From: Eubacteriales bacterium
Lineage (GTDB): Bacteria; Bacillota; Clostridia; Oscillospirales; CAG-272
Assembly: GCA_045543955.1 (NCBI GenBank)
Contig: JAZPYB010000025.1
Location: 23,289-87,288, forward strand
Direction of reading: 5' to 3'
Length of the DNA stretch: 64,000 bases
In this document: piece by piece, positions 1 through 62,474 of the stretch
Layout of the letters: every line of letters starts with the position of its first letter
Position numbering within the stretch: position 1 is the first letter of the stretch
Notes under the pieces: generated by a model
What the model saw: the letters and a program-made list of their open reading frames with translations, nothing else
Told to the model about the DNA's origin: nothing
Database searches by the model: none
Position numbers and translations under genes: made by a program

Positions 1-1
1 T

Positions 2-730
2 TCAGAAAAAGGCTATAAGGCTGAAGCGTCTAGAATAGCAAATGATATAATTAAAACAGATGCGCCAATTTCAGCGCTTAATGAAATACTAGAGGGTGGC
101 TTTGCCTTTGTTCAGGATGAGTCATCGAAAATTGCATCAGAGATTGTAGGCGCACAAGCGGGCGAGATAATTGCTGATGTATGCGCGTGTCCGGGAGGAA
201 AAACCTTTAGTATAGCTCTTGATATGCAAAATAAAGGTGAGCTTTATTCGTTCGATTTGCATCAAAACAAGCTTTCCCTAATTGACAAGGGCGCAAAAAG
301 GCTTGGCATTGAAATAATCAAAACCAAGGCTCAAAATGCAAAGGAATTTGTCCCAGAATACGAGGAAAAATTTGATAGAGTACTTTGTGATGTGCCTTGC
401 TCAGGGCTTGGTGTGATTTTCAAAAAGCCTGACATTAAGTATAAACCTATCGAAAACATAAACGCACTTCCATGCGTTCAGTACGATATTTTGCAAAATG
501 CTGCGAAATATGTCAAAAAGGGCGGAGTTTTGGTTTATTCTACCTGTACCTTAAACAGCGAGGAAAACGAGAAAAACGTCCTAAGGTTTTTAGCTAACAA
601 TCCTTCATATGAGGCGGAGGATTTTCAAATTGGCGAGATAAAATCTAGTAAAGGAGGCTATACATTTTTTCCACATATAAATGGTACAGATGGTTTTTAT
701 GTTGCGAAAATGAGAAGAAAGAATGACTAA
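2..730 (+). CDS. rsmB: 16S rRNA m5C967 methyltransferase RsmB, C-terminal part (5' end lies outside the window)
   Basis: Frame 2 is open from nt 2. It carries the SAM-site motif DVCACPGGKT and the catalytic-Cys motifs CDVPCSGLG and STCT. It sits in the conserved rsmB-rlmN-stp-prkC-rsgA order. Confidence 0.9.
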   Translation, partial: SEKGYKAEASRIANDIIKTDAPISALNEILEGGFAFVQDESSKIASEIVGAQAGEIIADVCACPGGKTFSIALDMQNKGELYSFDLHQNKLSLIDKGAKRLGIEIIKTKAQNAKEFVPEYEEKFDRVLCDVPCSGLGVIFKKPDIKYKPIENINALPCVQYDILQNAAKYVKKGGVLVYSTCTLNSEENEKNVLRFLANNPSYEAEDFQIGEIKSSKGGYTFFPHINGTDGFYVAKMRRKND

Positions 731-27056: not shown

Positions 27057-29915
27057 ATGAAAAAGAGAATAATAGCGGCCGTTCTTGCCGTATTAATGAT
27101 TTCAACATTGCTTTTACCATTATCGGTTGGAGCAGCATCTGTAAATCATATGAGCGCAACCTTCGGAAACGAAAGGGCAAAGCTCGCAACGATGACTTAT
27201 GTTATGACAAGCGATGACCCGGAAAAGGCTGGCAAGGGAGACGGAATCTTGGAGCTTTATGCTGACTATGATTCTGGCGAAATTGCAGTTAAAAATACAG
27301 TAACTGGCGAAATCACTTTGTCAAACCCATATAATATCACAAGTATTTTCCAATCAACTAACACAACTGATAAGGGAAAATTCTTATCACAAGCATATAT
27401 TAAGTATTTCAAGCTTAGCGAAGGTAGCAACGCTATGAAAACTTGGTATAGCTATAATGAATGCTTCGCATATAAGCAGGGTAGTGTTGTTCCAACAGAA
27501 AATGGACTAACGGTTAACTATTCTATTGGAGAAGAAGAGCGCGATTATGCAGTTCCTTTGAAAATAAGTCTAGAGGACTTTTATAATGCTTTACGCACTG
27601 CAGGAAAAGACGACAGGTCAATTGAATTGCTTGTAAAAGAGTATTTTTCTTCATATGACCCTGATCAAAAGTATATCAAAGACCCACTGTTGAGCGACCC
27701 AACAAGTACTAAGCGCGAAACAATGATTAAGGAACAACCTCTTTGTGCAACAACACCATTTATGTTCCTTTTGCCAAATGTTTACCAAAATACTAACACA
27801 ATGAAGAATTTGGAACAAAAGCTAGTGGCAGCTGCGCCTGAGTACTTTGTGTTATCCAAAGAGGGTGAGGAAAAGACTCAATTTGAGCTTGACAGAGATA
27901 AGTATTGGAATGAAGAAGCTGATAGAGGTATGTATCCTGAAAAGGAATATCCAAACTTCAAGTTTACTGTAGATTATAAGCTTACAAACGATGGATTGGT
28001 TGTTGAGCTTGATACGAAAACAATCGAATATAATAAAGATCTCTATTGTCTTGCAGAGATTACACTTCTTCCATACTTTGGTGCAGCTTCATTGAATCCA
28101 GAGTTGGATGAAAAGGGCAATACTCAATACGATAATGGATATATCTTTATTCCTGACGGAAGTGGCGCAATTGTAAGATTTGAGGATCTTATTGCTAAAA
28201 ACCAAACAGGTAAGATTTCTTCCATACTATATGGCTCTGATTATGCTAAGTATCAAATAACCGGAAAGAATACAGAGCAATACACAATGCCTGTATTCGG
28301 CTTGATTAACTCTAGCGAGGATAATGGAACAGGATATTTTGCAATAATCGAAGAGGGCGATGCGATGGGCTCCATCGTTGCCGATGCGGAAAGATACTAT
28401 ATTTCTGCATACGCATCATTTAAATATGCAGATTATGACGTGTATGACCTAGCAGATGCTTTCTCGAGTGGTACATCTTCATCTACTGAAATTACTGTAG
28501 TTTCTGACAATTGCTATGAAGGTAAGTATAGAGTGAACTATAAGTTTTTGACAGCAGAGGAGACAGCAAAGCAGTATGATTTAAAAAATACCTACGATAC
28601 ATCATATGTAGGAATGGCAAAGCTTTATAGAGATTACTTAACTGCAAATGGAACAATAAAGAAAATCACAGAAACTGAAGAGAACACAAAGCTTTTCCTT
28701 GAGGTCTTTGGTTCTGTTAAGGTTAAAGAGCAGGTATTCTCATTCCCTGTTACTGTTAATAAAGAACTCACAACCTTCAGCGATATAATAAATATGCAGA
28801 AGGAGCTTGCAGATGCAGGCATTGATAACAGCTCATATATCTTGAAGGGCTTCTACAATGGTGGTCTTGCATCAACATATCCTACAAAGATCAAATGGCA
28901 AAAGGTTCTCGGTGGTGAAAAGGGTCTCAATGCGCTTCTTGCCGACTCCGAAATGAATAACTATGATGTTTCTTTGGATGTAGATTTTTCGTATTCTCAT
29001 GGTTCAAAATGGTTTAGCGGTTACTCTAGTAGTAAGCATGCAACAAAAACCATTGACGATAGATATACAACAAGACGTACATATTATGCCGCTACACAAA
29101 CCTTTGAGCGTACAAGTGGCGTTGCTGTTTCAAGCGCATCGTTTATTTCACTATTCGAAAAATTTACAAAATCAATATCTGATGTAAGCCTTAAGTCATT
29201 AGCAATAAGAGCTCTTGGCAAAGATTTGAACTCGGATTTTGACAAGGATGACTTCTATTCAAGAGAGGATTCTAAAAACAATACAGTTAAGTTTATGGAA
29301 TCAATTACAAGGCTCAACGAACGCAAGTTTGGTTTAATAATTGATGCAGGAAATGTGTATGCGATGAAGTATGCTTCAGGTGTTCTTTCAGCTCCTCTTG
29401 ATAGTAGTAAATATATAAGAGCAAGTGAAAGTGTTCCTTTCTATGGTATGGTATATCACGGTTCAGTTGAGTTTGCAGGAAATGCACTCAATATGGAGGG
29501 TGACCAAGACTATATGTTCTTGAAGGCAATCGAGAACGGAGCAGTGCTTTACTACACATTAGCAAAGCAAAATGTTGAAACACTTAAATCCGATCCTGAA
29601 TATAGCAAATATTATTCAATAAGCTATGATTTCTTAAAGGGTTCAATAGCTGAAAACTATACAACATATAACAATGCAATGAAGGATAAGCAAAACAAAT
29701 TCATCGTTGATCATAAATTCCTCAATGATGGAGAAGAAAATTGCTCCGTTACATTGCTTGATGGCACAGCAGTTGATAACTCCTTGGTAGTTCTCGTTGT
29801 ATACGAGGGTGGAGAGGGATTCATTCTCAACTACAATAGCCAAGATGTAATTGTTGAATTCGAGGGTAAAGAATATATAGTTCCAGGCCTTGATTTCAAA
29901 CCATACAAATCATAA
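27057..29915 (+). CDS. Secreted 952-aa protein of unknown function (DUF5696-like, from memory)
   Basis: It has the signal peptide MKKRIIAAVLAVLMISTLLLPLSVGA|AS and no motif of a characterised family that I can recognise. The DUF5696 assignment is recollection of similar loci, not a search result. Confidence 0.5.
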   Translation: MKKRIIAAVLAVLMISTLLLPLSVGAASVNHMSATFGNERAKLATMTYVMTSDDPEKAGKGDGILELYADYDSGEIAVKNTVTGEITLSNPYNITSIFQSTNTTDKGKFLSQAYIKYFKLSEGSNAMKTWYSYNECFAYKQGSVVPTENGLTVNYSIGEEERDYAVPLKISLEDFYNALRTAGKDDRSIELLVKEYFSSYDPDQKYIKDPLLSDPTSTKRETMIKEQPLCATTPFMFLLPNVYQNTNTMKNLEQKLVAAAPEYFVLSKEGEEKTQFELDRDKYWNEEADRGMYPEKEYPNFKFTVDYKLTNDGLVVELDTKTIEYNKDLYCLAEITLLPYFGAASLNPELDEKGNTQYDNGYIFIPDGSGAIVRFEDLIAKNQTGKISSILYGSDYAKYQITGKNTEQYTMPVFGLINSSEDNGTGYFAIIEEGDAMGSIVADAERYYISAYASFKYADYDVYDLADAFSSGTSSSTEITVVSDNCYEGKYRVNYKFLTAEETAKQYDLKNTYDTSYVGMAKLYRDYLTANGTIKKITETEENTKLFLEVFGSVKVKEQVFSFPVTVNKELTTFSDIINMQKELADAGIDNSSYILKGFYNGGLASTYPTKIKWQKVLGGEKGLNALLADSEMNNYDVSLDVDFSYSHGSKWFSGYSSSKHATKTIDDRYTTRRTYYAATQTFERTSGVAVSSASFISLFEKFTKSISDVSLKSLAIRALGKDLNSDFDKDDFYSREDSKNNTVKFMESITRLNERKFGLIIDAGNVYAMKYASGVLSAPLDSSKYIRASESVPFYGMVYHGSVEFAGNALNMEGDQDYMFLKAIENGAVLYYTLAKQNVETLKSDPEYSKYYSISYDFLKGSIAENYTTYNNAMKDKQNKFIVDHKFLNDGEENCSVTLLDGTAVDNSLVVLVVYEGGEGFILNYNSQDVIVEFEGKEYIVPGLDFKPYKS

Positions 29916-38269: not shown

Positions 38270-38298
38270 TTGACAATTTACATAAAAAATGATAAAAT
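38270..38298 (+). promoter_or_regulatory. Sigma-A promoter of the discoidin lipoprotein gene
   Basis: It reads TTGACA, a 17-nt spacer, then TAAAAT. This argues against the ORF-track start at 38270. Confidence 0.65.
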
Positions 38299-38329
38299 AA
38301 AAGAGAAGAAAAATTTGGAGGATCATAAA

Positions 38330-40594
38330 ATGAAAAACAAGCTTTTAGTTTTGTTGTCTTTAATTTTATGCTTGTCAATGATTTTCGTTCTTGCTTCTTG
38401 TGGAGGCGGAAGAAGAGATACTGACACTGACACAGAGACACAAACAGAGACAGAATCCCAAACCGAAACCGAAACTGAAACAGAGACAGAAACTGAAACA
38501 GAAACAGAAACCGAAACTGAAACTGAGGACCCAGTATGCGACCACAGTGAATGGGAGATTGAAACTATTCAAGAGCTAACCTGCGATCAAAATGGCATTA
38601 CTGTAAAGAAATGCTCATCTTGTGGAGAGGAGCTTGAGGACAGAGAAGAGATTATAACTGAAGGGCACAAGTGGAGTGATTGGAAGGAAACACAAGAGCT
38701 TACTTGCACTCAAGATGGTATAGAGGAAAGAAAGTGTACAGCTGCAAATTGTGGAAAGACTGAAACTAAACAAACAGAAGCAGCAGGTCATAACGCTGGA
38801 GACTGGGTAACAGAAAGTGAGCTTACCTGCGAAACCGACGGCGTTGAGGTTCAGAGCTGTACTGCCTGTGGAGAAGAATTAGACAAAAAAACAATCAAGA
38901 CAGAAGGTCACCAATGGACCGAATGGGGCATTGGTTGGGATGATGCACCATTTGCTAAGGAAGCAACATGCCTAGAGGCTGGCTATCTAGGTAGAGTATG
39001 CTATGGCTACTGCGGTGGTGAGGAAGTGCAAATTGTGCCAATAGCCGACCATCAAATGGGCGATTGGGTAATTCCTGAAGGCGTTACCTGTACAACAGGT
39101 GGAACTATAACAAGAACATGTACAGTTTGTGAAGAGTACACCGAAACAAATACTGTTGAGCCTGGTGGACACGTTAACGTCTATTACGATGGTGCTATTG
39201 AAGCTACCAAGGAGCAAGATGGTTCAACTGGCGTAAAAAAGTGTAAAGCTTGTGGCGCAACAATAGAAAGCGCAAAGGTAATTCGAATTGTTAATGTAGT
39301 ATCTAATGCGACAGTAACAAGTAATGCCTCACACTGGCAGGTTGTTGGAAACAACTGGGCTCCAAATACACTTAACTATATAAATGATGGAAACAAAGAA
39401 ACTGGTATGCCATCGTGTGCAAATCTTAGAGGCACTCAGTGGGTAAAGCTTTCCTTTGAGGAAGCTATAGATTTAACCGAGCTAGTTGTTGTTTGCAATG
39501 GTAAGGGCAATATTGGAGGATTAGAAAGCGTAAAAGAGCTTACCAACCTTGGCGTAGACCTTGCTATAACATTTATAGATTCTGAAGGAACTATTGTTTC
39601 AACAGAAACAAAGAATTCACTTGATGTGTTAGAGCTTTCATTTAAAAACACAAGCGATACACCAATAAAGGAAATTACAATTTCATATCAAACAGAATAT
39701 AATGCAAGAACAATTTATTTGTGGGAAGCGGAAGCATATGAAAAGCAGTACCTAAACCCATGTGAGGCAAACGGACACGCATGGAGTGATTGGGATGTAA
39801 CCCCTGCTACTTGTAGCCCTGAGGAGCTTGTAAATGGTTCTAGGACAAGAGAATGTACAGCTTGTGGCGAAACCGAAACAGAAACAATAGTTGCTGCTCA
39901 CTCTTGGTCAGAATGGGAAACAGGCAATATAACCTGCGCAACAGGTGGAACAAAAACAAGAGAATGTACAGCTTGTGGTAAGGAAGAAAGTGAAACAGTT
40001 GAGCCATCCGGACACTTAGATGTTCAGCTCGAAAATGCAAAAGAAGCAACATTTGAGGAAGATGGCTATACAGGCGACCGTGTATGTAAAGCTTGTGGCG
40101 AAACAGTTGAAGAGGGAACAACAATTCCTAAGATTGTAAACCATGCATCTTCTGCTACTGCAACAACAACTGCTTGGGTTGTAACAGCAAGCTATATAAA
40201 CGATGGTAAAATGGACACAGGCGCAACTGGTTATGGTAATGCACAAAGAGACGTAACTCATACTTTAACATGGGCAAGCGCAGTTGGATTTAACACCTTT
40301 AAGCTTTATTTCAATGGTGACACAACAAATAAAAAATTAGGTTCAAACATTGATGATAATTTTGCTGATCAATATAACAATACAAACACTAACACAACCT
40401 TAACAGTAAAATTCTACGGTGCAGATGGCACTACTGTTGTAAAAGAAGTAGTGATTAACACGGTGGATCAAACTGAATATACAATTTCATTAGGAGAAGT
40501 AACTCAAATTTCAAAGGTTGAAATTGTAAACTATCAGGGTTGGGATATGAGCAAGGCTGTTAACATTTGGGAAGTTCAAGCTTACACAGAATAA
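38330..40594 (+). CDS. Surface lipoprotein: TE-repeat linker, His/Cys3 repeat modules and two discoidin (F5/8 type C, CBM32-like) domains
   Basis: A GGAGG RBS precedes MKNKLLVLLSLILCLSMIFVLAS|C (lipobox). A (T/E/D) low-complexity linker follows. There are 5 full and 1 degenerate repeats of about 41 aa (38534-39265) and 3 more (about 39760-40130). Two domains end in ..IYLWEAEAYE and ..NIWEVQAYTE. Confidence 0.75.
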   Translation: MKNKLLVLLSLILCLSMIFVLASCGGGRRDTDTDTETQTETESQTETETETETETETETETETETEDPVCDHSEWEIETIQELTCDQNGITVKKCSSCGEELEDREEIITEGHKWSDWKETQELTCTQDGIEERKCTAANCGKTETKQTEAAGHNAGDWVTESELTCETDGVEVQSCTACGEELDKKTIKTEGHQWTEWGIGWDDAPFAKEATCLEAGYLGRVCYGYCGGEEVQIVPIADHQMGDWVIPEGVTCTTGGTITRTCTVCEEYTETNTVEPGGHVNVYYDGAIEATKEQDGSTGVKKCKACGATIESAKVIRIVNVVSNATVTSNASHWQVVGNNWAPNTLNYINDGNKETGMPSCANLRGTQWVKLSFEEAIDLTELVVVCNGKGNIGGLESVKELTNLGVDLAITFIDSEGTIVSTETKNSLDVLELSFKNTSDTPIKEITISYQTEYNARTIYLWEAEAYEKQYLNPCEANGHAWSDWDVTPATCSPEELVNGSRTRECTACGETETETIVAAHSWSEWETGNITCATGGTKTRECTACGKEESETVEPSGHLDVQLENAKEATFEEDGYTGDRVCKACGETVEEGTTIPKIVNHASSATATTTAWVVTASYINDGKMDTGATGYGNAQRDVTHTLTWASAVGFNTFKLYFNGDTTNKKLGSNIDDNFADQYNNTNTNTTLTVKFYGADGTTVVKEVVINTVDQTEYTISLGEVTQISKVEIVNYQGWDMSKAVNIWEVQAYTE
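38417..38530 (+). repeat. Imperfect hexanucleotide tandem repeat (GAnACn) encoding a Thr/Glu/Asp linker
   Basis: The sequence gatactgacactgacacagagaca...gaaaccgaaactgaaactgaggac is visible directly. Confidence 0.9.
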
Positions 40595-44370: not shown

Positions 44371-47350
44371 ATGAAGAAAATACTTTCACTTTTATTACTA
44401 ATATTTTTAATGATTGGAATTGCCGGCTGTGCTAAACCAAACACCGACACTGACCAGTCAACATCTGACACAGAGACAGAAGCTATTATAATAGCTGTTA
44501 AGCTTGAGCTAGATGGCGGAAAGGTTTCTTACAGCAAGAATTTTGAATGGGATGCAGGGGATGAAATCGAGCTTCCCAATGCTACCAAAGATGGCTATAA
44601 ATTCCTTGGCTGGTACATAGGGGAAGAAAAAATTGACTTCCCATACACATCGGAAGAGGATGTCACATTTGTTGCAAAATGGGAAAAATTAACCGAGACA
44701 GACACTGAGGACGGCGATAACACAGCTACAGAAAGTGATGGCAATGAGGACGAAGCAACTTCAGACACCGACGAGTCAGCATCTGACACGGAAACCGATA
44801 CAAAGATTAATATTACATTTGACCCTAATGGTGGCGAAATTATAACAGGGGAAGCCACACGTCAAGCAACTCCAGGTAAAAACTTTGCGCTTGTTCCAGA
44901 AGTGGAAAAGGACGGATATGAGTTTGTTGGCTGGACAACCGAAGATGGCGAGGCTGTAGACGTTCCTTTTGTTGTTCCAGATGTTGATACAACATATTAT
45001 GCAAAGTGGTCTAAGATAACAAATGATGATACAGAAACCAATACTGACGATGATGTAGATACGGAAACTGAATCTGAAACCGAAACCGAAACTGAGACCG
45101 AAACTGAGACCGAAACCGAATCAGAAACGGATACAAGTACAGAAAGTGAATATGTTCCGCCATTACTTGATCACGACACCATAAATTATACACCAAGATA
45201 TTCAACCGATAAAAAGAAGCTATATTATGGCTCATATTCTGTCAAGGTTCCTTTGATAACAGAATATTATAACAACATGTCAGCTGCTCTTTCTATGAGC
45301 TTTGATGATGGTGCCGATGTTGATGCAGCATTCCTTGCATCAGAAATTATGTCGGAGTACGGCTTCAAGGGTACTCTTATGGTAAATATAGGCAATATTC
45401 AAGGCAACCTTTCAAGATGGCAGGAGCTTGTTGCTCTTGGCACACTTGATATTGGCTCGCATGGATGGGCACACAAGGACCCTAGCACAATTACAACTGA
45501 TGAATTAGAGCACGAAGTTAAAGATTCTTATGATTTTTTGCAAGAAAACTTTGGTGCGTATAACCCGGTTACATATGCAACTCCTTTGTCCCATTTAACT
45601 GATGAATATAAGGAATATTTAAAGTATTGTGGTTTCATTTCAAACCGCTTGGAAACCTTTGGAACAATGATTTCTCCAAGCAAGGAGGAAGCTGATATGT
45701 ACACCTTATATTCAAAGAGAATTGATACTGGCAACAATGTAGAAACAAATGTAAGGATAAATATTGGCGATGCTTTGGCTGCCGGAAAATGGTTTATAGA
45801 GCTTTACCACAATGTGAGAGATAATAGAGATGGCACTGACGTGCCTGTTGAAGATTTTAGAAATCATTGTAAGTGGCTCTATGATAACTATAATGGCAAG
45901 GTTTGGTTTGGCTCATACGACGATGTTTCAAAGTATATTGCTCAAAGACAAACAGCAACCATTGAATATACAGCAGCTGATAGTGAGTCTATGACATTCC
46001 TTGCCAAGGTTGATAAAAACTATGGACAAGAAATGACTCTTAAATTCTATATGCCATTCTTTATTGATTCTGCATACGCAATAATTGATGGCGAAACACA
46101 ATATCTAAAGGTTGAAAAGGAGCCTAATACAAGAGTTGTATACATTAACACCGAAATTAGCGAGCAAGGTACAGAGATAAAAATCGTTATGGGTGGAAAT
46201 GACAAGTATTTTAACAACTGTACTCACACATATGTAGAAAACAATGTTGTTGCTCCAACAGAAGATAGCTTCGGCTATACTGAAATGATTTGTACAAACT
46301 GCGAGCATACATACAAAAAAGCATATACAGAGTATGTTGACCCGTCAGAAGCTACAACGGTCAGCTTCAATGGGGAAACTCTTTCAGCACCAACACTTAC
46401 AAATTATTATCACAATTATAGCTCCGCTGTTTCATTTACAATAGATGATGGATATGATGGTAACACCGCTACAAATGTTGCAGATGTTATGGAAAAGTAT
46501 GATATGCGTTGTACTGCTATGTTAAATCCTTGCTTTGTAGATGAGGAAGCAACGATAAAAAAATGGCAAGATGCTTTGGCGAGAGGCTGTCTTTGACATA
46601 GGCTGCCACGGCTATTCTCATATAAGCGCAGATGAACTAGCCTCTAGTGATTACGAGCACGAGGTAAAAGAGGCTATTGAATATTTAAGAGAGACGTTTC
46701 CTGGTCAAGAGGTTTTGACCTTTGCCGCTGCATTTAATACGGTAACTCTTAATTATTTAGCATACCTTGACGATTATGCAATTTCTTGCAGAATTGGTGG
46801 AAATGGTCAACAAGCATATTTAGGTAGTGATTTTGACAAATATATCATTAAAGCATTTGGATTTAATGAAAACACCAATTTCACTACATTGCAAGCTCAA
46901 ACAGACGAGCTTGTAAAAAACGGCGCTTGGGTTGTGTACTTTTTCCACACAGTAACGGATGCAGAGCCTTATGAAGATGTTGGTACTAGCAAGGCGGTGC
47001 TTGATGCTCATTGCAAAGCTTTATATGATAAATATAATGGTGATGTTTGGTTTGGCTCGTTCCAGGACGTTTCAATTTATTCATATCAGCTTGAAAATGT
47101 AAAAATCACACCAACTAACCTAGAAGGCGAAACAATGGTGTTCAATGTGAATACAACACTAGACACCGATATTTACAACATTCCAATGTCAATAAAAATA
47201 AATATTCCATCAAGCTCTGATAGCGCGTATGCCTTAGTAAATGGCACAAGGCAAAATGTTGAAATAGTAACAGAGCAAGACGGAAACAAATATATATGTG
47301 TATTAGACGTTCCAATTAATAACTCAACAGTTGAAATATGCTTTGATTAA
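44371..47350 (+). pseudogene. Lipoprotein with 2 Listeria-Bacteroides (Flg_new) repeats and two tandem NodB polysaccharide-deacetylase modules, interrupted by a +1 frameshift near 46582
   Basis: The lipobox is MIGIAG|C, and the Flg_new repeats contain GYKFLGWY..FVAKWEK and GYEFVGWT..YYAKWSK. Module 1 has SFDDG and GSHGWAH. Module 2 has TIDDG in frame A (stop at 46594-46596) and GCHGYSH in frame B (ORF 46571..47350). Skipping A46582 gives WQDALAEAVFDIGCHGYSH, colinear with WQELVALGTLDIGSHGWAH of module 1. Confidence 0.75.
45058..45150 (+). repeat. Hexanucleotide tandem repeat (GAnACn) encoding a TE/SE linker
   Basis: The sequence gaaactgaatctgaaaccgaaaccgaaactgagaccgaaactgagaccgaaaccgaatcagaaacg is visible directly. 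It is the same repeat class as 38417..38530. Confidence 0.9.
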
Positions 47351-58475: not shown

Positions 58476-61400
58476 ATGAAAAGAAAAGGTTTATTAGCCA
58501 TGCTTTTAATCACGGTGCTTGTTTCATTGGTGGCTGTTTTGGCTTCCTGTGGAGGAAATGCAAGTGATAAATGCATTCATGTGTGGAAAGATGTTCATTC
58601 AAGTGAGCCAACCTGCGAAGAGTCAGGCTTTGTTGAGCAAAAATGCTACGAGTGTGGCGCAACATCAACTAAAACACTTGCACCTTTAGACCATGAGCCA
58701 GTAGAAGTTCTTGGTCGCGCACCAACCTGTACAGAGCCCGGTATGAGCAATGGTTCTAATTGCAAATATTGCGACAAGGTAATTGTACCACAAGACGAGC
58801 TTAAGCCAACTGGTCACATAATAGTAACAGTTGAAGGAAAAGAAGCAACCTGTACTGAGAAAGGTCTTTCCGATGGAGAAAGCTGCTCAGTATGTAAAGC
58901 CGTTTTTAAAGAGCAAGAGGAAATTGATTTAATAGACCACCAATGGATTGTAGAGGATGGTTATGACGCAACATGCGAGGAGGAAGGACTTTCCAACCGT
59001 TCATATTGCTCTATGTGTGAAGAGATTCGAGAGGAACATGTAGTAATCCCTGCCAAGGGACACAACTTTGTTTCCAACTATGATGGATATCCTTCAACCT
59101 GTACAGAGGTTGGATATTCCGATAGCACATATTGCGCGAACTGTGGTCTTGAAGGAGAAGAAAGAAAAGAACTACCACTAGCTGACCACGTGCTTGTCTA
59201 TAATGGCGATGGTCGCCCAGCAACATGCACTGAAAACGGTCTTACTGAAAGTACTTATTGCGAAAGCTGTGGTGAGGTAATTGACGAGCAAACCATTATA
59301 GAATATACAGGACACAATGTGGTTTCTATAGGTGGAAAGAAAGCAACATGTAGAAGCACAGGCTCAACAGAAAGTAAGCAATGTGCTACTTGCAAAATGG
59401 TAATAGCTGAGTCAGTTATAATACCAAAAACTGGTCATAGCTTCGAAAATGGCACATGCTCCGAATGTAAGCTTTCCATTTCAAATGGACTTACATATGT
59501 AAAGAACGGCGCTGGCAACGGCTATATTGTAGTTGATAAGGGCTCCTTTGAGGGCACTCTAGTAGTTGTTCCTGATACATATGAAGGACTTCCAGTTGTT
59601 GCAATTGGAGAGGGCGCATTCAAGGGGGAAGCAATAACCAGTGTTACTCTTATAGGCGAAACAACAACTATTGAAAAGAACGCATTTGAGGGATGCACCT
59701 CACTTACAGAGGTTAATTTGCCAAAGAGTGTAGTAAGTGTTGGCGAAAATGCCTTCAATGGCTGTACTTCACTTGATTATATAAGCTGTGAAGACTTTTC
59801 ACAAAGCTACGAATGGGCACAGGGCTGGAATGGCGAAGCTAATATCGTTATAAAGGCTGAGCAAAAGGAAGGCTTTAGCGCATTCGAAATTTATCTTCTT
59901 GCTATACAAACAATGCAAAATAAGATTGATCGCTACAAAATGAGCACAACTCAAAACATGTCAGTTTATATGAATGGCATGGAAATGATGAACATAACAA
60001 ACAAAGAGCATTATGAATATGCCGTAGATGATCTTTACACTTATATTTACGACGGAGATAGTCAGTCTGAAATGTACGTTTGGTATATAGACGAGGTTTT
60101 GTACGTTATTCAAGATGGCATTTACGCAAAAATGACTGCAAGCCCGGAGTATTTCCGTGATTCTTCAAATCAAATGTATGAAACACTCAATGTTTTCGAG
60201 GAAAAATATTTCGATAATGCAGAATTTTATCGTAATACTGATGGCACATATTCTCTAGTTCTCGTTATGAGCAATGAGCACATGGCGGACCTTGTTGAAA
60301 GAGTTTTAGGTATGGATTCTGCAACGGTTACTATGACCTCTTGCATTTATTCATATGATTTTGATGCAAACGGTTATCTTTCTGCAATGTACGCTGATGC
60401 TGTTTTCACAATTGGCGACGGTATTCAATCAGCAACAGGCATACTTGACCAAGATACAATTCTTGCAGAGGTTGGTACATTAGCTTCAGTTAAGCAACCA
60501 GTAGGCAACTTTATTGATGTAACAAATAAAAACTGCACCCACCCAACAAATAGTATAATAATTGTTCCTGGCTTTGAAGCAAGCTGCACAGTAGATGGAC
60601 TAACAGATGGTGCATATTGCGCAAATTGCTATGCAACAATAAAAGCGTCTTCTCAAATCAAGGCAACGGGACACAAGTATAAGAATGAAAAATGTACAGT
60701 CTGTGGAAAGCTTGAAAACCAAAGTGAGGGCTTGTACTATGAGATTTCAGATGACGGAAAAACAGTTTACCTAGCAGGCATGGGAACATATAATGGCACA
60801 GATGTTGTCGTTCCTGAGAAAATGTTTGGCGTTCCTGTTGTTGGAATTAAAGCAGGCGCGTTTGATGGCGCAAACATCACTAGCCTCTCCTTGCCAAACA
60901 CTATTAGAGATATAGAAAAAGGCACATTCGATGGATGTGATACCTTGAAAAAGGTAGCATGCCCACTTTGGATTGTTTCATCACTTCCTCAAAGCGTTGA
61001 GGACTTAACTATTACTGACGGCACATCAATTTCTCAAAGTGATTTTTCTAACCTTACCGAGCTTAGAATCCTCGAATTGCCTGAAACCATTACCGAAATT
61101 GCAGATGGCGCATTCGAAAACTCTCCAAAGCTCACATATATTTATAACTTCTCATCCCTCGAAATCGTAGCAGGCGAGGCATCATATGGTGGAATTGCAA
61201 AAAATGCAATACAAATATATACAGACCCATACCAAGAAAAATATATTCAATGTGTTGGCGACTTCTTCTTTAGTGGTATTGAAGAATTTTCTTTAGTACA
61301 CTATATCGGAAATAGCGAGCATCTTGTTCTTCCAGATGGCATAAATGGCGAAATGTATACTATATCAGCCAATGTGTTTGAAAACCACAATGAAATAGTT

Positions 61401-62474
61401 AGCATTACAATTCCAGAGAATATTCGAAAGATGGATGTAGATGCGTTCAAGGGATGCACAAATGTTAAGAATGTCACCACTTATAAAACCACATTTTTCA
61501 CAACAAAATCACTTCCATTTTCTATAACTGAGGTTGCAATTTTAGGCAATGAAATTTTCCAAGAATCATTTAAGTCCTATGGCAATATTACAACAGTAAC
61601 AATTTCTGCCGATGTAACTACAATAGGCTGGAATGCATTTTTAAGCTGTGACTCTCTTACAACTGTAAATTATTTAGGAACAATAGAGGATTGGTCAAAT
61701 ATAACCTTCGCTAGCAGTTATTCAAATCCTGTATATTTCACAAAGAAGCTAGTTATAGAAGGAGAAGAGGTAACTAACCTTATAATACCTGATACAGTAA
61801 CTGAAATTAAGCCTTATGCATTCAATAATTGTGAAAGCCTAACAAGCATTACAATAGGCAATGGAGTAACCAGCATTGGTACTTATGCATTTGATGGCTG
61901 TATTAACGTAACAAGTCTTACAATAGGCGAAGGCGTAAAGGACATTGCTGATTATGCATTCTATAACCTTAAAGGCTTGAATGAATTGAATTTCAATGCT
62001 AAAGAGATGAATAATTTAAGCTCAGGCATGTACGGAAGTACAGTTAACTATGCCTTTTACAATGCGGGAAAAAATGGAGATGGCATAAAGGTAACAATAG
62101 GCAATACTGCAAAAAGAGTTCCTGCGCATTTGCTTTGCCCAAGCACATATACTGATGCTTCTTCAGGATTACCAAAGGTGGCAAGCATTGAATTTGAGGA
62201 GAATAGCGTTTGTGAGGAAATAGGCTCACGCGCATTCTATGGTTGCTCAGAAATAACAAGCATTGAAATCCCAGCAACTGTAAAACAAATTGGCGCTGCT
62301 GCATTCCACAAATCCAATTCACTAACAAAAGTAACCTTTAAAAATACCGAAGGCTGGTATTGCATAGAGGAAGACACCACAGAACCAGAGATAGCTATTA
62401 CAATAGCAGATGAAGCTACCGCTGCAACTTATTTAAGCTCAAAATATTGCTTCTATAATTGGTATCGCGAATAA
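58476..62474 (+). CDS. Giant surface lipoprotein: His/Cys3 repeat array plus BspA-type leucine-rich repeats
   Basis: The lipobox is VAVLAS|C. Seven consecutive repeats of about 41 aa lie at 58566-59480, with a further copy at about 60533-60715. BspA-type LRR units (e.g. IPDTVTEIKPYAFNNCESLTSITIGNGVTSIGTYAFDGC) fill most of the remainder. Confidence 0.8.
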   Translation: MKRKGLLAMLLITVLVSLVAVLASCGGNASDKCIHVWKDVHSSEPTCEESGFVEQKCYECGATSTKTLAPLDHEPVEVLGRAPTCTEPGMSNGSNCKYCDKVIVPQDELKPTGHIIVTVEGKEATCTEKGLSDGESCSVCKAVFKEQEEIDLIDHQWIVEDGYDATCEEEGLSNRSYCSMCEEIREEHVVIPAKGHNFVSNYDGYPSTCTEVGYSDSTYCANCGLEGEERKELPLADHVLVYNGDGRPATCTENGLTESTYCESCGEVIDEQTIIEYTGHNVVSIGGKKATCRSTGSTESKQCATCKMVIAESVIIPKTGHSFENGTCSECKLSISNGLTYVKNGAGNGYIVVDKGSFEGTLVVVPDTYEGLPVVAIGEGAFKGEAITSVTLIGETTTIEKNAFEGCTSLTEVNLPKSVVSVGENAFNGCTSLDYISCEDFSQSYEWAQGWNGEANIVIKAEQKEGFSAFEIYLLAIQTMQNKIDRYKMSTTQNMSVYMNGMEMMNITNKEHYEYAVDDLYTYIYDGDSQSEMYVWYIDEVLYVIQDGIYAKMTASPEYFRDSSNQMYETLNVFEEKYFDNAEFYRNTDGTYSLVLVMSNEHMADLVERVLGMDSATVTMTSCIYSYDFDANGYLSAMYADAVFTIGDGIQSATGILDQDTILAEVGTLASVKQPVGNFIDVTNKNCTHPTNSIIIVPGFEASCTVDGLTDGAYCANCYATIKASSQIKATGHKYKNEKCTVCGKLENQSEGLYYEISDDGKTVYLAGMGTYNGTDVVVPEKMFGVPVVGIKAGAFDGANITSLSLPNTIRDIEKGTFDGCDTLKKVACPLWIVSSLPQSVEDLTITDGTSISQSDFSNLTELRILELPETITEIADGAFENSPKLTYIYNFSSLEIVAGEASYGGIAKNAIQIYTDPYQEKYIQCVGDFFFSGIEEFSLVHYIGNSEHLVLPDGINGEMYTISANVFENHNEIVSITIPENIRKMDVDAFKGCTNVKNVTTYKTTFFTTKSLPFSITEVAILGNEIFQESFKSYGNITTVTISADVTTIGWNAFLSCDSLTTVNYLGTIEDWSNITFASSYSNPVYFTKKLVIEGEEVTNLIIPDTVTEIKPYAFNNCESLTSITIGNGVTSIGTYAFDGCINVTSLTIGEGVKDIADYAFYNLKGLNELNFNAKEMNNLSSGMYGSTVNYAFYNAGKNGDGIKVTIGNTAKRVPAHLLCPSTYTDASSGLPKVASIEFEENSVCEEIGSRAFYGCSEITSIEIPATVKQIGAAAFHKSNSLTKVTFKNTEGWYCIEEDTTEPEIAITIADEATAATYLSSKYCFYNWYRE

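Follow-up and report, generated by a model that had tools for sequence, protein, structure and literature searches.

Results

A repeat of about 41 residues in three surface lipoproteins

The stretch of DNA analysed in this study, hereafter the window, comprises 64,000 nucleotides and contains the genes of three surface lipoproteins, P1, P2 and P3, all of which (3/3) have a lipobox. These proteins carry a genuine repeat of about 41 residues, in which a His is followed by three Cys residues, here termed C1, C2 and C3, the last two forming a short knuckle. In P1 two repeat arrays alternate with two lectin-like sandwiches, in the order array 1, sandwich, array 2, sandwich; P2 combines its arrays with leucine-rich repeats, and P3 (44371-46596) has one unit between its two polysaccharide-deacetylase domains (Table 1). 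By our census P1 contains 9 units, P2 8 units plus 2 short caps, and P3 a single, weaker, stand-alone unit. An initial annotation, made from the sequence alone, had placed an extracellular repeat of this length in these proteins, with 8-9 copies in P1 and 8 in P2; the repeat is found there, borne by lipoproteins. The true start of P1 is probably the ATG at 38330, from which the translation reads MKNKLLVLLSLILCLSMIFVLASC with the lipobox at its end. Neither P1 nor the aldolase has a match on record by exact look-up, and a scan of genome contigs with P2 gave no relative.

Table 1. Features of the three lipoproteins in window coordinates, with the predicted ligands of each putative metal site
Feature	Position	Strand	Basis or predicted sites
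P1 lipoprotein gene	38270..40594	+	ORF; 27 full-length orthologues in Clostridia MAGs
P1 signal peptide and lipobox (LASC)	38330..38401	+	Read from sequence
P1 (ACAGAA)n, acidic Thr-Glu linker from lipid anchor to array 1	38432..38523	+	Tandem Repeats Finder; translation
P1 array 1: N-cap Cys90 and 6 units, aa 90-340	38537..39289	+	6 predicted Cys3His sites
P1 array 1, predicted sites 1-3			C90/H92/C115/C118; C105/H133/C156/C161; C146/H174/C197/C200
P1 array 1, predicted sites 4-6			C187/H214/C244/C248; C234/H261/C284/C287; C274/H301/C325/C328
P1 putative lectin-like (galactose-binding-domain-like) beta-sandwich 1	39290..39760	+	Likeness to sandwich 2 (aa 623-774)
P1 array 2: N-cap Cys498 and 3 units, aa 498-622	39761..40135	+	3 predicted sites
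P1 array 2, predicted sites			C498/H503/C529/C532; C515/H544/C566/C569; C556/H582/C606/C609
P1 lectin-like beta-sandwich 2 (F5/8 type C / CBM32 / fucose-lectin fold)	40136..40594	+	AF2, Foldseek
P3 stand-alone unit, C617-x-H619 ... C641-x2-C644	46219..46335	+	Weak profile score; orthologue ligand conservation
P2 lipoprotein (LASC lipobox), stalk arrays and BspA-type leucine-rich repeats	58476..62474	+	ORF; Pfam LRR_5 E=1.6e-75
P2 array 1: N-cap Cys33, 7 full units, short cap H321-x6-C328-x2-C331	58572..59480	+	8 predicted sites
P2 array 1, predicted sites 1-4			C33/H35/C57/C60; C47/H73/C96/C99; C85/H114/C137/C140; C126/H155/C178/C181
P2 array 1, predicted sites 5-8			C167/H196/C220/C223; C209/H238/C262/C265; C251/H280/C303/C306; C292/H321/C328/C331
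P2 array 2, between LRR blocks: N-cap Cys687, 1 full unit, short cap	60531..60725	+	2 predicted sites
P2 array 2, predicted sites			C687/H689/C715/C718; C704/H733/C740/C743

Pairwise identity between units is 21-36%, and the His, a Gly, C2 and C3 are invariant in all 18 aligned units. The spacing is conserved yet variable, with x9, x10 or x13 between C1 and C2 and a CxxC, Cx3C or Cx4C knuckle, so that the invariant spacing described initially does not hold. The C-X10-C spacing, in particular, applies to P2 except for its first unit (x9), whereas P1 has x9 and, in one unit, x13. The distance from His to C1 in P1 is x11-12, with one unit of x19, and C2 and C3 are separated by x2 in all P1 units but two, CYGYC (x3) and CTAANC (x4), the latter being the single C-X4-C unit that had already been noticed. 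When a detection profile was built from homologues only, leaving out the window sequences, P2 scored 228 bits (8 units) and P1 133 bits (9 units), as compared with a best score of 10.8 bits among 600 shuffles; the P3 copy, at 13.5 bits, is marginal. A six-frame scan gave no additional credible copies in the window. One weak profile match, at 29067-29123 on the minus strand, lies antisense inside a real gene (27057-29915) and was set aside as a chance match. Tandem Repeats Finder detected no period of about 123 nt in the arrays, and a recent expansion at the DNA level was rejected.

Cys bookkeeping at the ends of the arrays

In all arrays of the window the number of Cys equals three times the number of His-containing units only when a Cys just ahead of the first unit, the N-cap, is counted and the last unit is without C1. 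On this evidence unit i would supply its His and its CxxC to putative site i, and unit i-1 would supply its C1. C1 of each unit would then serve the site of the following one, and for this reason first units have an additional N-cap Cys or His, while last units have no C1; in P1 the C1 position of the last units is occupied by K314 (array 1) and F595 (array 2). Among 24 P1 orthologues (34-51% identity), the 35 ligand positions are 99.5% identical, as against 44% at the other 341 repeat positions. The N-cap Cys is present and the unit number is 9 in 24/24 of these orthologues, and none of them has a Cys or a His at position 314 or 595.

The same rule holds across about 420 units from 70 proteins. 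C1 is a Cys in 347/371 non-terminal but in only 8/49 terminal units (Fisher p=7.5e-32), and 42/73 first units, versus 18/349 internal ones, have a Cys or His no more than 5 residues ahead of the unit His (p=4.9e-24), although these p-values overstate independence, as the homologues are phylogenetically related. Most exceptions to the boundary rule are parse errors or variant knuckles. This bookkeeping rule is what is new here, and it indicates, indirectly, that the four putative ligands come together at the junction between units. It also bears on P3, whose four predicted ligands are conserved in 5 orthologues; this conservation supports the copy, the score of which is marginal. The C1 position of the P3 unit is E632; it is E, K, Y or A in the single-unit orthologues, and His only in the sole orthologue that has a second unit after the first. 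The copy that the initial annotation had reported in the deacetylase lipoprotein is therefore present, but it is not degenerate: it has the N-cap Cys and lacks C1, as befits a unit that stands alone.

Metal site or disulfides

The combination of three Cys and one His is best explained, as judged from these sequence patterns, by a tetrahedral metal site rather than by disulfides. An HCCC metal site within each unit had been suggested at the outset; the metal site stands as the best explanation, but it would not be confined to one unit, since C1 is predicted to come from the preceding one. It is nevertheless true that conserved Cys residues of extracellular proteins usually form disulfides, and 16/56 four-unit windows of the repeat match the laminin-type EGF model below threshold, so we considered a disulfide-stabilised, EGF-type Cys-rich repeat that binds no metal and in which the His is conserved for another reason. 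We regard this reading as very unlikely. With three Cys per site one would always be unpaired, and the invariant His together with this odd number departs from EGF-like domains, which have an even number of Cys and no conserved His ligand. The ligand at the N-cap is Cys in 27 cases and His (HxH) in 17, and such an exchange points to a metal, because the partner in a disulfide cannot be His. The C-x2-C-G knuckle is of the zinc-ribbon or rubredoxin type. In addition, the repeat is hosted by Clostridia MAGs, presumably of strictly anaerobic bacteria, which would be poor in oxidative-folding machinery. The related IgA protease described below argues in the same direction, as disulfides are neither seen nor predicted in it, a reducing agent is required for its monodispersity, and some of its sites are His2Cys2 (PMC12237041).

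Predicted fold

The initial annotation had proposed predicting the structure of a repeat segment, and AF2 gave a confident all-beta model of P2 residues 30-199 (mean pLDDT 92.9), in which DSSP assigns three short strands to each unit. Within a unit the His is at the same end as the knuckle, with C1 in a loop at the opposite end. The pTM is only 0.53, a low value of the kind expected for a rod, but one that also leaves the relative orientation of the units poorly determined in this model. The model of P1 array 2 likewise shows three strands per unit (pLDDT about 85-95). No solved counterpart of the repeat was found in the PDB; the Foldseek local matches at probability 0.90-0.99 were all to the NrdR zinc ribbon, over 42-49 columns and with E>0.5. 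The AF2 model of P1 sandwich 2, in turn, matches 3lei (E=7e-7, TMt 0.77) and also 2j1r, 4a41, 2v72 and 3nng.

Distribution and database matches

No Pfam or NCBIfam family covers the repeat at E<=1 in P1, P2 or P3, nor was one found in scans of 6 multi-copy relatives and of the 56 four-unit windows, in line with the initial failure to assign it to a named Pfam family, at least for the Pfam-A and NCBIfam copies searched. The sub-threshold Pfam knuckle matches of the 56 four-unit windows are all to zinc-ribbon or rubredoxin families. Two families in the precomputed annotation of some matches do not explain the repeat: PF26029 is absent from our scan, and PF21349 matches a knuckle of 15 residues only. 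PF23674, the 'RYYR-CCHC domain', scores 30.6 bits against a cut-off of 27 on one unit of the homologue P0054, a variant of about 50 residues (...EYYRCKRCDKFFSD...) that resembles subdomain I of the IgA protease. It has no match at E<=1 in P1, P2 or P3 and does not figure in the top 25 families listed for the 56 four-unit windows; what it models seems to be no more than a side branch of the repeat. The initial annotation had held that an HCCC site would be unusual for a secreted bacterial protein, but the module is not unusual: it is very common in metagenomes, and the repeat-unit profile has matches in about 62,000 representative proteins at most. In some proteins nearly the entire chain is made of the repeat, which reaches 89 copies, and several of these lack a recognisable head. 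The partner domains elsewhere are all of cell-surface types, namely SLH, cohesin, dockerin, LPXTG, LRR_5, Big_2 and CW_binding_2.

A profile of 125 units searched against PDB sequences identified the Thomasclavelia ramosa IgA protease (9qa6_A, E=3.4e-13). The matched stretches, 854-884, 939-976 and 1103-1137 of the chain (residues ~883-913, 968-1005 and 1132-1166), correspond to subdomains I and III of ZBD1 and subdomain III of ZBD2. By sequence, the repeat is homologous to ZBD1/ZBD2 (CTD2/CTD4) of this enzyme (UniProt Q9AES2). The ZBD sequence is contained in PDB entry 9qa6 but is unresolved in that structure.

Discussion

We propose that the repeat forms an extracellular beta rod that acts as a stalk, with a putative metal, most likely a structural Zn2+, at the junctions between units, and we consider this model probable. 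Each unit would be a small three-stranded up-down-up sheet with the conserved His just ahead of strand 1, C1 in the loop between strands 1 and 2 at the far end, and the C2-x2-C3(G) knuckle in the hairpin of strands 2 and 3 at the near end. Each junction would hold one metal, bound by His, C2 and C3 of one unit and C1 of the unit before it. At the start of an array a Cys or His placed 1-4 residues ahead of the first His would substitute for the missing C1, and the last unit, often shortened to H-x5-8-C-x2-C, would need no C1 and has none. Since the predicted sites are interleaved along the chain, they would lock successive sheets end to end and give a stalk of fixed length without a hydrophobic core. 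From the span of about 110 A reported for three IgA-protease subdomains (PMC12237041), we infer a length of about 3.7 nm per unit, at which P2 array 1 would measure about 28 nm and the arrays of P1 about 22 nm and 11 nm. Such stalks would reach through the wall and hold their heads at a distance from the membrane, these heads being two lectin-like sandwiches in P1, BspA-type leucine-rich repeats in P2 and deacetylase domains in P3. Judging from this architecture, the role of the repeat is most likely that of a rigid stalk of fixed length that displays these domains.

A metal other than zinc was also considered. A ligand set of three Cys and one His is compatible with a [2Fe-2S] cluster of the mitoNEET type, and weak rubredoxin-like knuckle matches occur (RUBY_RBDX in 19/56 four-unit windows), so the sites might hold iron or an iron-sulfur cluster for extracellular redox chemistry. 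We find this extremely improbable, however, because sites about 3.7 nm apart would be far beyond the range of electron tunnelling, CDGSH domains show no sequence similarity to the repeat, and His2Cys2 variants are typical of Zn. Moreover, both groups that studied the IgA protease modelled its sites as tetrahedral Zn (PMC12237041, PMC12415215).

The repeat might also be more than a spacer. If it were itself a functional binding surface, for example an adhesin for glycans or proteins of the host or the diet or a mediator of zinc-dependent contact between cells as in SasG/Aap, the metal sites would be structural all the same. Proteins that are almost all repeat, several of them without a recognisable head, would fit such a role; additional functions are left open by the PNAS paper (PMC12415215), and IgA cleavage in vitro is impeded by the protease's own C-terminal domains (PMC12237041). 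However, surface residues other than the ligands, Gly and Thr are poorly conserved both among orthologues (44%) and between units (21-36%), a pattern that a conserved binding face would not show. The repeat also occurs with a wide variety of heads and anchors that are unrelated to one another, as spacers typically do, and the protein itself would fill all four coordination positions and leave none for bridged dimers of the Aap kind, as argued in PMC12415215. A binding function of the repeat itself is thus unlikely in our opinion, and we retain the metal-linked stalk as the preferred model.

If this model holds, anaerobic Firmicutes would have in this repeat a general building block of their surface, a beta rod that lacks a core and coheres through inter-unit zinc only. 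It is unnamed in databases although the proteins that contain it number in the thousands to tens of thousands, and its hosts include adhesins, cohesin-dockerin proteins of the cellulosome or amylosome type, S-layer proteins and a therapeutically studied IgA protease; a new Pfam/InterPro entry would be justified. The bookkeeping rule delimits arrays and counts predicted metal sites from sequence alone, guides the choice of minimal constructs, such as P2 array 2 (2 predicted sites, 65 aa) and P1 array 2 (3 predicted sites, 125 aa), and shows protein engineers which Cys to retain when stalks are trimmed. What follows is more speculative, and we hold it to be rather doubtful. Given a family of at most about 62,000 representative proteins, in which a chain may have up to about 90 sites, few extracellular metal-binding repeats of bacteria that are still uncatalogued may be more abundant than this one. 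As neighbouring units would share each putative zinc, ambient zinc might then determine how stiff whole surface stalks are, and even whether they fold, in Clostridia of the gut and rumen. Zinc sequestration by the host (calprotectin-type nutritional immunity) or zinc excess could make adhesins, enzymes and S-layer-anchored proteins collapse or stand erect, and the arrays could constitute a sizeable extracellular zinc store.

Comparison with known systems

The repeat resembles the zinc ribbon, as in the TFIIS C-terminal domain, the NrdR N-terminal domain and Pfam DZR/Zn_ribbon, in its C-x2-C(G) knuckle hairpin and three-stranded antiparallel sheet. However, the classical zinc ribbon is cytoplasmic, usually binds nucleic acids and has two CxxC knuckles, with four Cys, in one domain of about 30-40 residues, whereas the window repeat has one knuckle per unit, the remaining predicted ligands being the His at the start of the unit and a Cys of its neighbour. 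None of its matches to zinc ribbons passes threshold (Foldseek E>0.5; Pfam below the gathering score).

A second likeness is to the G5/E repeats of SasG/Aap and to other Periscope Proteins, which are core-less, single-layer beta rods that project heads from Gram-positive surfaces. Zinc plays a part in Aap as well (PMC12415215). In Aap, however, it links one molecule to another by way of His, Asp and Glu, while the predicted sites of the window repeat are intramolecular and draw their ligands from Cys and His only. Length variation in Periscope Proteins arises from near-identical tandem DNA repeats, the copy number of which differs between strains; the window arrays, in contrast, show no repeat at the DNA level, and the number of units is constant in the 24 P1 orthologues.

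The closest relatives are the two domains of the T. ramosa IgA protease, which were named putative zinc-binding domains ZBD1/ZBD2 (PMC12237041) and, as CTD2/CTD4, 'metal-associated periscope domains' (PMC12415215) in 2025, in both cases from models and SAXS. The AF models show tetrahedral Cys/His sites at the interfaces between subdomains (PMC12237041, PMC12415215), which are His2Cys2 or Cys3His (PMC12237041), and isolated CTD2 in SAXS fits a fully extended rod (PMC12415215). The domains were presented as a putative new fold, a zinc-binding rod, and structural zinc and a spacer or 'periscope' role have been proposed for them (PMC12237041, PMC12415215). The initial annotation had allowed that the repeat might belong to an already described domain of known fold or role; it has indeed been described, but its fold and metal come from models and SAXS only. 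We found no metal analysis of the ZBD domains in the literature, where their sites are predicted ones, and no other description of the repeat beyond these two papers. The available portions of PMC12237041 and PMC12415215 contain no description of the bookkeeping rule or of the family size. The ZBDs and the window repeat have in common end-to-end three-stranded sheets of about 35-40 residues, predicted Cys/His sites at the junctions and an extracellular location, and the sheets of the window repeat are antiparallel with the same up-and-down connectivity as the ZBD subdomains (AF2, DSSP). They differ in that the IgA protease is a sortase-anchored enzyme with only 3 + 2 uneven subdomains and mostly His2Cys2 sites, whereas the window proteins are lipoproteins with regular arrays of 3-8 units, predicted Cys3His sites and defined N-cap and C-cap forms.

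Results

The stretch at 38534-39265, in which the initial annotation had noticed an extracellular repeat, does carry it, and lies in P1, one of three repeat-bearing lipoproteins of the window; the others are P2, with leucine-rich repeats (LRRs), and P3, a deacetylase. The units, ~41 residues long, follow the consensus (G/D)H-x11-12-(T)C1-x3-G-x5-6-C2-x2-C3(G), and an alignment of 18 units shows no variation at His, Gly, C2 or C3. The spacing C-X10-C-X2-C, originally described as invariant, is conserved but not fixed: the C1-C2 gap is x9 in P1, x10 in P2 and x13 in one unit, the knuckle is once Cx3C and once Cx4C, and the His-C1 gap is x19 in one unit and x14 in another. The unit pattern is well beyond chance: with the window sequences left out, a profile of homologues alone scored 228 bits on P2 and 133 bits on P1, far above the best of 600 shuffles (10.8 bits). 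On the P3 copy it scored only 13.5 bits. A six-frame scan of the window found no further credible copies. One weak match (29067-29123, minus strand, E about 1e-3) was judged to be chance, as it lies antisense inside a 952-aa gene (27057-29915). No tandem repetition at the DNA level was found across the arrays, so these are old.

Features of the three repeat-bearing lipoproteins (window positions, or residues where marked aa)
Feature	Position	Strand	Description
P1 ORF	38270-40594	+	774 codons; holds the stretch first flagged
P1 signal peptide	38270-38401 region, probably from ATG 38330		reads MKNKLLVLLSLILCLSMIFVLASC, lipobox …VLASC
P1 Thr-Glu linker	38432-38523		(ACAGAA)n; downstream of signal peptide, upstream of arrays
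P1 array 1	aa 90-340		6 units
P1 array 2	aa 498-622		3 units
P2	58476-62474	+	lipoprotein with BspA-type LRRs (Pfam LRR_5, E=1.6e-75)
P2 array 1	aa 33-335		7 units and short cap
P2 array 2	aa 686-750		1 unit and cap
P3	44371-46596		lipoprotein with polysaccharide deacetylase and Flg_new repeats
P3 unit	aa 617-655		single unit

The mechanical start of the P1 ORF, a TTG, puts 20 residues ahead of a canonical lipoprotein signal peptide, and the ATG listed in the table is probably the true translation start. Acidic low-complexity Thr-Glu/Thr-Asp linkers occur in P1 and at aa ~235-262 of P3 (about nt 45070-45160), after the lipid anchor or between domains, and gave rise to spurious Pfam/NCBIfam matches (New_glue, PARP, etc.). 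In P3, a +1 frameshift at a short T run (46560-46610; tgt ctt t gac ata ggc tgc cac), where ORF 44371-46596 ends and ORF 46571-47350 starts, breaks the second polysaccharide-deacetylase domain, the reading ...ALARGCL* resuming in the next frame as DIGCHGYSH. Since P0338, an 87%-identical homologue, stops at the same ...ALARGCL, the break may be real, reflecting a pseudogene or recoding rather than an assembly error, although the contig of this homologue has only 1108 nt.

The arrays of the window begin and end in a regular manner. In every first unit an extra Cys, the N-cap, stands 1-4 residues upstream of the His (VCDH, PCEANGH, KCIH, NCTH and NCTH), and every last unit lacks C1, having K, F or E in its place or being shortened to H-x6-C-x2-C. 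If predicted metal site i consists of C1(i-1) or the N-cap together with His(i), C2(i) and C3(i), each array Cys and unit His is used exactly once, giving 9 predicted sites in P1, 10 in P2 and 1 in P3. This rule was tested on about 420 units from 67 homologues, found with the P2 array, and the three window proteins. C1 is Cys in 347/371 units with a following site versus 8/49 terminal units (Fisher p=7.5e-32), and the 5 residues ahead of the unit His include a Cys or His in 42/73 first versus 18/349 internal units (p=4.9e-24), although the proteins are related and both p-values thus overstate independence. Most of the exceptions listed are parse errors (HxH, wrong His taken), variant knuckles (C-x5-H) or frameshifted tails. 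These counts contradict the initial view that each site is contained in one unit; instead, C1 appears to be lent to the site of the next unit.

Orthologue comparisons independent of this set agree with the rule. Among 24 full-length P1 orthologues (34-51% identity), from 'Clostridia bacterium' MAGs, identity is 99.5% at 35 ligand positions versus 44% at the other 341 repeat positions. The N-cap Cys is kept in 24/24, Cys or His never occurs at 314 and 595, the missing C1 positions of the terminal units, and conservation of Cys and His is confined to the arrays. The P3 copy, previously called degenerate, proves to be a single unit that combines both end features, an N-cap Cys (C0) and no C1, with C0, His, C2 and C3 kept in 5/5 orthologues of the segment. 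In the proteins that show one such unit, namely that of the window and four fragments of orthologues, the C1 position holds E, K, E, Y or A; P0342, an orthologue of window 45871-46596 and the only one with a following second unit, has His at the C1 position of unit 1.

The earlier preference for a metal site over disulfides is supported in substance, as a prediction. A disulfide-stabilised unit is unlikely, since each site has three Cys, an invariant His and a knuckle of zinc-ribbon type, and since the fourth ligand swaps between Cys and His (27 and 17, respectively, at the N-cap).

Given an alignment of 56 four-unit windows of the repeat, AlphaFold2 modelled P2 aa 30-199 as all-beta (mean pLDDT 92.9, pTM 0.53). 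Strand 1 follows the His directly, the strand 1-2 loop contains C1, strand 2 finishes at C2, and C2-x2-C3-G forms the strand 2-3 hairpin. This topology suggests an up-down-up sheet whose N-terminal end carries the His and knuckle and whose opposite end carries C1, adjoining the start of the next unit, which is the geometry that the rule needs. Foldseek found no match to this model in the PDB (entries up to April 2026) at E<=0.001, the sole high-probability local matches being to the NrdR zinc ribbon (42-49 columns). In BFVD, two proteins of human-gut virome contigs share the fold, A0A8S5QLF9 ('Podoviridae sp.', a fragment with an SLH domain) and A0A8S5SUG5 ('Siphoviridae sp.', with LRRs); they represent either bacterial DNA in virome bins or phage/prophage-borne surface proteins.

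Each P1 array is directly followed by a beta domain of ~150 residues (39290-39760 and 40136-40594), neither of which was matched in a Pfam scan. A second model (P1 aa 493-774, pLDDT 85.9) gives the latter as a galactose-binding-domain-like sandwich, best matched by the lectinolysin fucose lectin 3lei (E=7e-7, TMt 0.77), the pneumococcal fucose module 2j1r, CBM32 modules and the F5/8 type C domain 3nng; the former is a putative similar sandwich by its resemblance to this second copy. With two such lectin-like domains, P1 is probably a bivalent glycan-binding surface lipoprotein.

The repeat, whose possible metal site was thought at first to be unusual for a secreted bacterial protein, is common. 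A 125-unit profile searched against 1.84 billion representative proteins matched up to 62,174 at E<=1e-3, 37,903 at E<=1e-10 and 13,148 at E<=1e-30, all upper bounds, as C2H2 zinc-finger arrays match the knuckle weakly and may swell the lower ranks. Among the 150 matches listed, nearly the full profile is covered in all, two covering only positions 2-34/35; the top matches have 900-7,200 residues and as many as 89 matched stretches. Where a source is named, it is Clostridia, Lachnospiraceae, Oscillospiraceae/Ruminococcaceae, Roseburia or Butyrivibrio. The partner domains are all of cell-surface types (LRR_5, cohesin, dockerin, SLH, LPXTG anchor, Flg_new, Big_2, FN3, CW_binding_2, transglutaminase-like, CAP, YkuD and bMG3). 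Five relatives (P0001, P0031, P0049, P0060 and P0061) have a common Cys-rich hydrophobic C-terminal tail, roughly CxCxCHK..(I/F)FFK(F/I)..F......C.CG..HY, which is absent in the window proteins and may be a membrane anchor or sorting signal.

The initial annotation had assigned the repeat to no named Pfam family, and neither Pfam nor NCBIfam has a model that matches it in the window proteins or in relatives with 17-27 copies. The 56 four-unit windows gave no family match, only sub-threshold ones of the knuckle to zinc-ribbon and rubredoxin families. PF23674 'RYYR-CCHC' was above cut-off on one variant unit (~50 residues) of a homologue, and not on P1, P2 or P3. Against PDB sequences, the 125-unit profile gave one real match, 9qa6_A, the Thomasclavelia ramosa IgA protease (E=3.4e-13; E=0.095 with an 18-unit profile).

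Discussion

The best-supported reading is that a structural metal ion, most likely Zn2+, would sit at each unit junction, common to the neighbouring units, and that these predicted metals would make core-less sheets a stiff stalk of fixed length, keeping lectin-like, LRR and deacetylase heads distant from the membrane. By extrapolation from three subdomains of the IgA protease, published as spanning 110 A, a unit may add about 3.7 nm. The distance between sites makes an iron or iron-sulfur redox role very unlikely. It is possible that the repeat itself has a binding role, but its surface conservation is low and its partners are highly varied, which fit the structural stalk better.

The matching domains of the IgA protease were described in 2025 in two papers that the initial annotation had missed, and our literature search found the repeat in no other paper. 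The 9qa6 construct comprises Met, A31-I1166 and a tag (chain offset 29), and the three matched stretches, residues ~883-913, 968-1005 and 1132-1166, correspond in ZBD1 to subdomains I and III and in ZBD2 to subdomain III. No more than S32-N876 is resolved in the cryo-EM map, which leaves the ZBD domains without an experimental structure. In AlphaFold3 models they consist of three-stranded sheets joined end to end, three subdomains spanning about 110 A, with putative tetrahedral His2Cys2 or Cys3His zinc sites at the subdomain interfaces and no disulfides (PMC12237041). Isolated CTD2 is a fully extended rod by SAXS, in agreement with its AF2 model, and it was proposed that the zinc of CTD2/CTD4, the names used there for ZBD1/ZBD2, is purely structural and that the domains act as spacers (PMC12415215). 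In neither paper did we find a metal analysis for these domains. What our study adds is the N-cap/C-cap bookkeeping rule, with evidence for sites common to neighbouring units, and the very large size of a family whose repeat has no database model. Unlike Periscope Proteins in the strict sense, the arrays have no near-identical DNA repeats and their unit number is constant in orthologues, and they are not members of that class. The repeat is of the recently recognised kind found in the IgA protease, and the window has an especially regular, predicted Cys3His array form of it.
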